In this document: positions 14,026 to 14,379 of the stretch, piece after piece
How the letters are laid out: each line of letters starts with the position of its first letter
Numbering within the stretch: position 1 is the first letter of the stretch
Origin: Escherichia coli
GTDB taxonomy: Bacteria; Pseudomonadota; Gammaproteobacteria; Enterobacterales; Enterobacteriaceae
DNA: 64,000 nt
Reading direction: 5' to 3' (one strand)
NCBI RefSeq assembly: GCF_003334815.1
Contig: NZ_QOWO01000003.1
Notes under the pieces: generated by a model
What the model was told of the DNA's origin: nothing
Seen by the model: only the letters and a program-made list of their open reading frames with translations
Databases searched by the model: none
Made by a program: the position numbers and the translations under genes

Positions 14026-14379
14026 CGCCATTTACCTTCATGATAGTTCAATTCGAATCAATATGTGATTGGTTTTGATTAATCCTGACACTATTTTTTC
14101 AGGAAGGCAATGACCATTTTTTGACTTTTTGCCAGGGAAGTTGTTGTTGATTTTGAGTGTGGAAAGATTTAATGGAATGTGTAGTTAAATTAACTAAATG
14201 AATTTAAATAAATAATTGTTTCGTTATGTGAATCCCACTCTATCCGTGTGGAATTATTTGCGGGTCGCGTCACATTTAATCATAAATAATCTTGTTGTGA
14301 TTACTTTTGAAAATTAGAGTGAGTGCACAACATTCCGGGTGTGCGGAATACCCGGTTACCTCTTCTTCAGGAGATCGTT
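14026..14379. promoter_or_regulatory. divergent ulaG / ulaABCDEF control region
   Basis: 354-bp AT-rich gap between divergent starts; TGTGA/TCACA-like half sites (e.g. tgcgggtcgcgtcacat); individual sites not resolved. Confidence 0.5.

Follow-up and report, generated by a model that had tools for sequence, protein, structure and literature searches.

A common allele of the divergent ulaG-ulaA control region in Escherichia coli, with candidate UlaR arrays, a spacer constrained in length and a covarying hairpin in the ulaA leader

The window, a stretch of 64,000 nucleotides of Escherichia coli DNA, displays the divergent ulaG / ulaABCDEF arrangement with ulaR downstream of ulaG, both in its open reading frames and in the RefSeq annotation of identical or near-identical loci (Table 1). 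Between ulaG and ulaA lies an intergenic control region that occupies exactly 354 bp, positions 14026-14379, in which A+T amounts to 65.0% (G+C 0.33) against 48.5% in the whole window. A first, sequence-only reading had described an AT-rich intergenic region of this length, which is confirmed, and its view that this is the large divergent control region of ulaG and ulaA agrees with the homology and synteny with K-12, with the intact UlaR and with a literature in which control is exerted by UlaR (through four operators), CRP and IHF. The start of ulaG, an ATG on the minus strand at 14023-14025, is the K-12 start codon, and ulaA begins with the ATG at 14380. An in-frame upstream extension of ulaA to a GTG at 14323 (14323-14379, plus strand) was rejected as an artefact in view of the conserved GGAG, the ATG at 14380 and the RefSeq annotation. 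RefSeq gives the same layout for K-12 MG1655 and for strain ECCHD184, the spacer of which is 100% identical to that of the window.

Elsewhere in its locus, between rplI and ytfB (27044-36827), ECCHD184 has a gene cluster that specifies a TRAP transporter, an FAD-dependent oxidoreductase, a CoA transferase, an enoyl-CoA hydratase and a TetR regulator; its equivalent in the window probably lies at about 21070-30850. K-12 is not known to have such a TRAP-transporter/CoA-transferase cluster at this position.

Table 1. Genes and observed or predicted elements at the ulaG-ulaA locus (positions in the window)
Feature	Positions	Strand	Details
ulaR, DeoR-family repressor gene	12098..12853	-	protein of 251 residues, identical to the K-12 protein
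ulaG, L-ascorbate-6-phosphate lactonase	12961..14025	-	one amino acid different from K-12 (V110 here, I in K-12)
Candidate UlaR array, ulaG side	14048..14080	palindromic	TCA(14048)-N5-AATCA(14056)-N5-TGATT(14066)-N5-TGATT(14076); identical to K-12
Predicted ulaG promoter	14082..14110	-	-35 TTGCCT (14110 to 14105), 17-bp spacer, extended -10 TGtCAGGAT (14090 to 14082)
Central spacer	14113..14248		sequence essentially unconstrained, length constrained
Candidate IHF core ATTCATTTAGTTA	14191..14203	-	two mismatches to WATCAANNNNTTR; identical to K-12
CRP site TGCGG-GTCGCG-TCACA	14259..14274		centre 14266.5, about -60.5/-61.5 from the predicted ulaA start; identical to K-12
Candidate UlaR array, ulaA side	14278..14312	palindromic	AATCA(14278)-N5-AATCT(14288)-N5-TGATT(14298)-N5-TGAAA(14308); identical to K-12
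Predicted ulaA promoter	14292..14320	+	-35 TTGTTG (14292-14297), 17-bp spacer, -10 TAGAGT (14315-14320)
ulaA leader stem-loop	14335..14355	+	minimum-energy fold; CCGGGUGU (14335-14342) pairs with AUACCCGG (14348-14355), loop GCGGA
ulaA, PTS ascorbate transporter subunit IIC	14380..15777	+	one amino acid different from K-12 (N264 here, H in K-12)

It had been thought worth checking whether the control region of this strain departs from that of K-12, and alignment shows that it does. The two align without a gap over 354 columns, with eight substitutions and no indels (346/354 identical, 97.7%). Seven of the substitutions fall in the central spacer, at 14159, 14184, 14187, 14210, 14211, 14226 and 14246 (14210-14211 reads AA here and GG in K-12), and the eighth, at 14344 (C here, T in K-12), falls in the loop of the hairpin predicted for the ulaA leader. 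None of the eight lies in an element conserved across genera, the arrays, the CRP site, the promoter hexamers and the IHF-like core all being untouched. The spacer was matched in 5219 of 5426 complete E. coli genomes, at an identity of at least 99% in 1631 genomes, of 95-99% in 2465 and of 90-95% in 1122, and two listed E. coli genomes are 100% identical to the window spacer. Sampled evenly along the identity ranking, 38 of 39 full-length matches have a length of exactly 354 bp; the lone exception, at 353 bp, is E. coli fS25a (NZ_CM176579.1), no other sampled allele having a deletion of 1 bp. The allele of the window is a common natural variant, the ordinary form of a known system, and its eight substitutions are most likely neutral. 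As to the remainder of the survey, a match to the spacer is absent from 207 of the 5426 complete genomes and one match is located on a plasmid. In the fS25a assembly ulaG is annotated with an internal stop and ulaA is frameshifted, and a sequencing error is likely.

The elements that these substitutions avoid were delineated by comparison between genera. A pattern scan of species-representative genomes with the back-translated N-terminal peptide of UlaG listed at least 120 loci, and divergent ulaG-ulaA spacers were extracted from 27 of them. In 15 Enterobacterales taxa (mostly Enterobacteriaceae) among the matches listed, two blocks can be aligned, at about 14046-14112 and 14249-14322; in the same 15 taxa, again among the matches listed, the centre of the spacer cannot be aligned between genera. 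Both blocks contain one and the same array, with the plus-strand consensus ..aaTCAaa.t.AATC.t.ttgTGATT..TTtTGAtt, and the arrays are conserved in 16 taxa among the matches listed. With up to two mismatches allowed, the pattern TCA-N5-AATC-N6-TGATT-N5-TGA occurs at just two places in the 64-kb window, 14048-14078 and 14280-14310, where 0.12 matches would be expected by chance, and it matches there on both strands because it is palindromic.

What might bind these arrays is suggested by two sources. The UlaR decoy TGATTAATCATGAACAATCA (PMC7826281, supplement) is composed of the same pentamers, and the secondary literature describes a UlaR tetramer that sits on four operators and is released by L-ascorbate-6-phosphate. 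On these grounds we assign the two four-pentamer arrays, one per promoter, as putative UlaR operators, and genomic SELEX has placed UlaR binding in the ulaG-ulaA spacer. Relative to the predicted promoters, the arrays would cover positions from about -49 to -15 of ulaA and from about -5 to +28 of ulaG. The operators that the first reading could not assign with confidence by eye become assignable through phylogenetic footprinting. A further copy in the centre, TGTTGTTGATTTTGA at 14142-14156, was discarded as an operator: B2-type and some further E. coli alleles have lost its TGATT, and other genera do not have it. Outside the control region, in the ulaG-ulaR spacer upstream of ulaR, TTTGATTTTTTTAGATGATATTTGAAAT at 12870-12895 contains TGATT, TGATA and TGA elements; the genomic SELEX study reported a second UlaR-binding site upstream of ulaR.

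The CRP-like half sites that the sequence-only reading had seen turn out to be the conserved site itself. The string quoted there, tgcgggtcgcgTCACAttt at 14259-14277, holds a 16-bp core with two mismatches to TGTGA-N6-TCACA. A core match of this quality is not by itself above chance, 20 such matches being present in the window against 24.7 expected, and the site is accepted on its conservation instead: among the matches listed, TGCG and TCACA show no variation across 16 taxa and always lie 56 bp from the -10 element. Its distance from the predicted start of ulaA, at about -61, would correspond to a class I position, which agrees with reports that CRP activates ulaABCDEF.

Conservation at fixed spacing likewise points to two putative promoters, both of which are identical in sequence to K-12. 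Among the matches listed, the -10 hexamer TAGAGT on the ulaA side is kept at a fixed position in 16-19 taxa, always downstream of both the GTGATT of the array, by 18 bp, and the first base of the CRP-like site, by 56 bp, with the variants TACAGT in two Citrobacter taxa and ATGAGT in one Edwardsiella. Transcription of ulaA would then start at about 14327, and its leader would measure some 53 nt. For ulaG, 15 taxa among the matches listed share the plus-strand columns GCAA and TG.CA with little or no variation and at fixed spacing; a start at about 14075 and a leader of about 50 nt are predicted from them. The sole match returned by the promoter scan, ATCACA/TATCAT on the minus strand, was set aside: it is unconserved and would give an 8-nt leader overlapping the ribosome-binding site.

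Reports have IHF assisting repression, and in one recent paper the location of its site is given as unknown. The exact IHF consensus does not occur in 14026-14379. The candidate core of Table 1 is the sole conserved island in the central spacer. Among the matches listed, it is perfect on the minus strand in two Citrobacter taxa, Pseudocitrobacter, Escherichia sp. ESNIH1 and Pseudescherichia, has one mismatch in Hafnia and has two in Escherichia and Enterobacter. Its placement is also kept, with 125-127 bp separating it from the ulaG-side array, on the same strand, in most of 17 taxa among the matches listed; in Superficieibacter a one-mismatch match lies 136 bp from the array. This conservation makes the core a candidate for the IHF site of the proposed repression loop. 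Its AATCA part in E. coli also resembles the UlaR pentamer. The one-mismatch IHF matches in the region were distrusted, their positions shifting between E. coli alleles.

The arrays are spaced 232 bp apart in E. coli and E. albertii, 231 bp apart in Escherichia sp. ESNIH1 and Pseudescherichia, and 240-243 bp apart in thirteen other taxa (17 in total, among the matches listed). The two distance classes are one helical turn apart, and the 10-bp difference between them falls between the IHF-like island and the ulaA-side array. The distances are phased at 10.5 bp per turn, with R = 0.84 and a mean phase of 0.04 turn, a statistic computed over related taxa, the sequences of which are not independent. 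A spacer that cannot be aligned and yet keeps its length, with an IHF-like core inside it, fits the published model of looping by UlaR and IHF.

The same division into ends and middle is apparent within the species. When nine E. coli alleles are aligned, hardly any variation is seen in columns 1-105 and 245-354, and almost all changes lie in the middle. Measured against the B2-type allele of strain MS 200-1, divergence amounts to 1.0% at 14026-14130, 17.9% at 14131-14270 and 1.8% at 14271-14379, while fourfold-degenerate sites diverge from the same strain by 13.9% in ulaA and 23.2% in ulaG. The middle thus changes at approximately the neutral rate, comparable to that of the fourfold sites, and the flanks are strongly constrained. 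Against K-12, the fourfold-degenerate sites differ by 12.3% (ulaA) and 9.8% (ulaG) and the middle by 5.0%. What emerges is some 140 bp of putative loop DNA that is held in length and free in sequence, in a locus with high neutral diversity. As a separate matter, the fourfold-site divergence over 12961-15777 seems high for a comparison within one species, which suggests high diversity or past recombination at the ulaG-ulaA locus.

These rates bear directly on whether the allele differences could change regulation, altering the stability of the loop and hence the basal or induced ula expression of the lineage. Several observations are compatible with such an effect. The AA at 14210-14211 extends an A/T tract immediately 5' to the IHF-like core (minus strand) and could conceivably influence IHF affinity; the window gains a one-mismatch match to the IHF consensus at 14209-14221 (minus strand) that is missing in K-12; the changes at 14184 and 14187 remove a three-mismatch CRP-like match of K-12 (equivalent to 14180-14195); and on each side of the conserved IHF-like core there are differences at a distance of 4 to 8 bp. 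Moreover, a survey of E. coli non-coding alleles found the ulaG regulatory region unusually variable for a region of its length (PMC11106028). However, the positions concerned are conserved neither between genera nor among E. coli alleles, the 13-mer of the IHF-like core and all arrays are unchanged with respect to K-12, and matches with one to three mismatches to degenerate consensus patterns are common in DNA of 65% A+T. Divergence of the centre at about the rate of fourfold sites is, in addition, what would be expected if its sequence were under no constraint. We therefore consider a regulatory effect of these differences unlikely, and their neutrality the better reading.

Far less probable is the notion that the central spacer codes for a product of its own, be it a small RNA or a small protein, instead of serving as loop DNA. 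Three open reading frames of 27-36 codons, with GTG or TTG starts, do lie within or largely within it, but the sequence around them resists alignment between genera and varies about neutrally within E. coli, no Rfam match at gathering score was obtained for the spacer, and it contains no conserved promoter or terminator. A control region structurally unlike that of K-12, through an insertion, a deletion, a mobile element or rearranged operators, does have precedents in the species, such as E138 with IS1 in its spacer, but is refuted for this strain by the gap-free alignment and by the identity of both arrays, the CRP site and both predicted promoters. In E. coli E138 (NZ_AP022351.1; 4217-5146 of its locus) the IS1-like element enters the ulaG-ulaA spacer after 216 bp, and ulaA through most of ulaE is missing with only ulaF left, a natural loss of the ascorbate transporter operon.

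Loop DNA would account for the centre of the region; the ulaA leader has a feature of its own. Its minimum-energy fold contains the stem-loop listed in Table 1, and among E. coli alleles the changes within 14335-14355 either fall in the loop (14344, 14346) or convert a G-C pair of the stem to G-U. In an alignment of Escherichia and Citrobacter, pairing holds in 95.8% of cells, and in three of the eight pairs both partners have changed (C-G to U-A, G-C to A-U, U-A to C-G). The covariation score of this alignment, which is a small sample of related taxa, was reached by none of 500 shuffles, and the signal is destroyed when the partners are slid by one to three columns. All wobble pairs are G-U on the strand of the ulaA mRNA, and since they are so in the mRNA sense only, they point to a structure of RNA rather than of DNA.

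In other Enterobacterales genera, hairpins of unrelated sequence are found at the same position. The leader upstream of the ribosome-binding site has a mean z-score of -1.65 over 18 taxa (p 0.0004) and of -1.68 over 12 clades (p 0.004); inclusion of the Shine-Dalgarno sequence and the ATG leaves only weak z-scores, about -0.8 on average, and three or four taxa have no clear hairpin. RNAalifold on a plain MAFFT alignment of 16 leaders returned no consensus structure, as can be understood from the hairpins of different genera being out of register, and within-clade alignment and per-sequence shuffling tests were used instead. A search of Rfam gave no family match, the five matches obtained all being far below the gathering scores, and a literature search yielded no description of a stem-loop in the ulaA leader. 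The hairpin, as predicted from covariation and folding, may be new to description; stabilisation of the mRNA and modulation of translation are candidate roles for it. In the minimum-energy fold, a CUCUU pyrimidine tract farther down the leader also pairs with the Shine-Dalgarno AGGAG of ulaA (14360-14373, plus strand), and similar weak pairings are predicted in several other genera.

Taken together, we argue that 14026-14379 is very probably the canonical divergent region from which the L-ascorbate (ula) regulon of E. coli is controlled, in a common allelic form expected to function like that of K-12. The secondary literature has UlaR and IHF as repressors and CRP as the activator of ulaABCDEF. 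The sequence analysis itself establishes what the locus is, how its sequence and spacing are conserved and where the differences fall; for protein binding, looping, start sites and the effector, the mechanism that we propose draws on the literature and on inference. It runs as follows. Without ascorbate, UlaR would occupy the two equivalent four-element TGATT/AATCA arrays, of which that at 14048-14080 would overlap the ulaG promoter and transcription start, and that at 14278-14312 the -35 element and spacer of the ulaA promoter. The arrays, 232 bp or about 22 helical turns apart, would be held together in a repression loop, with IHF bending the intervening DNA, most likely at 14191-14203. L-ascorbate-6-phosphate would release UlaR, whereupon cAMP-CRP, bound at 14259-14274 (about -61), could activate ulaABCDEF.

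It is further conceivable, though we propose it tentatively and would not expect the whole combination to hold, that the leader stem-loop acts post-transcriptionally, by affecting either the stability of the mRNA or the accessibility of its ribosome-binding site, with its structure kept across Enterobacterales despite complete turnover of sequence, that the IHF site is indeed 14191-14203, and that the spacer serves as a ruler keeping the operator sets in helical phase. The region as such has little discovery value, being of a textbook type in which the differences avoid every conserved element. Its sequence-level coordinates for the candidate UlaR arrays, the CRP site, the predicted promoters and the probable IHF site are nevertheless usable for engineering and annotation of ula promoters, and the covarying leader hairpin offers a small lead.

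With regard to that hairpin, the nearest known counterparts are the 5'-UTR stem-loops of the ompA type, which stabilise enterobacterial mRNAs and in which a hairpin, short and stable and conserved in structure over sequence, sits close to where the leader begins. If ulaA transcription starts at 14327, about 8 unpaired nucleotides would precede its hairpin, which is more than in the classic stabilisers. The presumed loop, for its part, resembles the multi-operator repression loops formed by DeoR at deo and by GalR with HU at gal, in which separated operators are placed whole helical turns apart with the site of an architectural protein between them. By analogy with these, the ula loop would be distinguished by having its operator sets on two divergent promoters, such that a single loop would silence both units, and by each set being a palindromic array of four pentamers. 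The closest known system is the ulaG/ulaABCDEF region of K-12 itself (Campos et al. 2004, J Bacteriol 186:1720; Garces et al. 2008, Biochemistry 47:11424, as cited in the secondary literature), which has the same genes, gene order and 354-bp length and an identical UlaR protein. The control region in the window departs from it at eight positions, of which seven belong to the central spacer and one to the hairpin loop of the leader, and shares with it identical candidate operators, CRP site, predicted promoters and IHF-like core.
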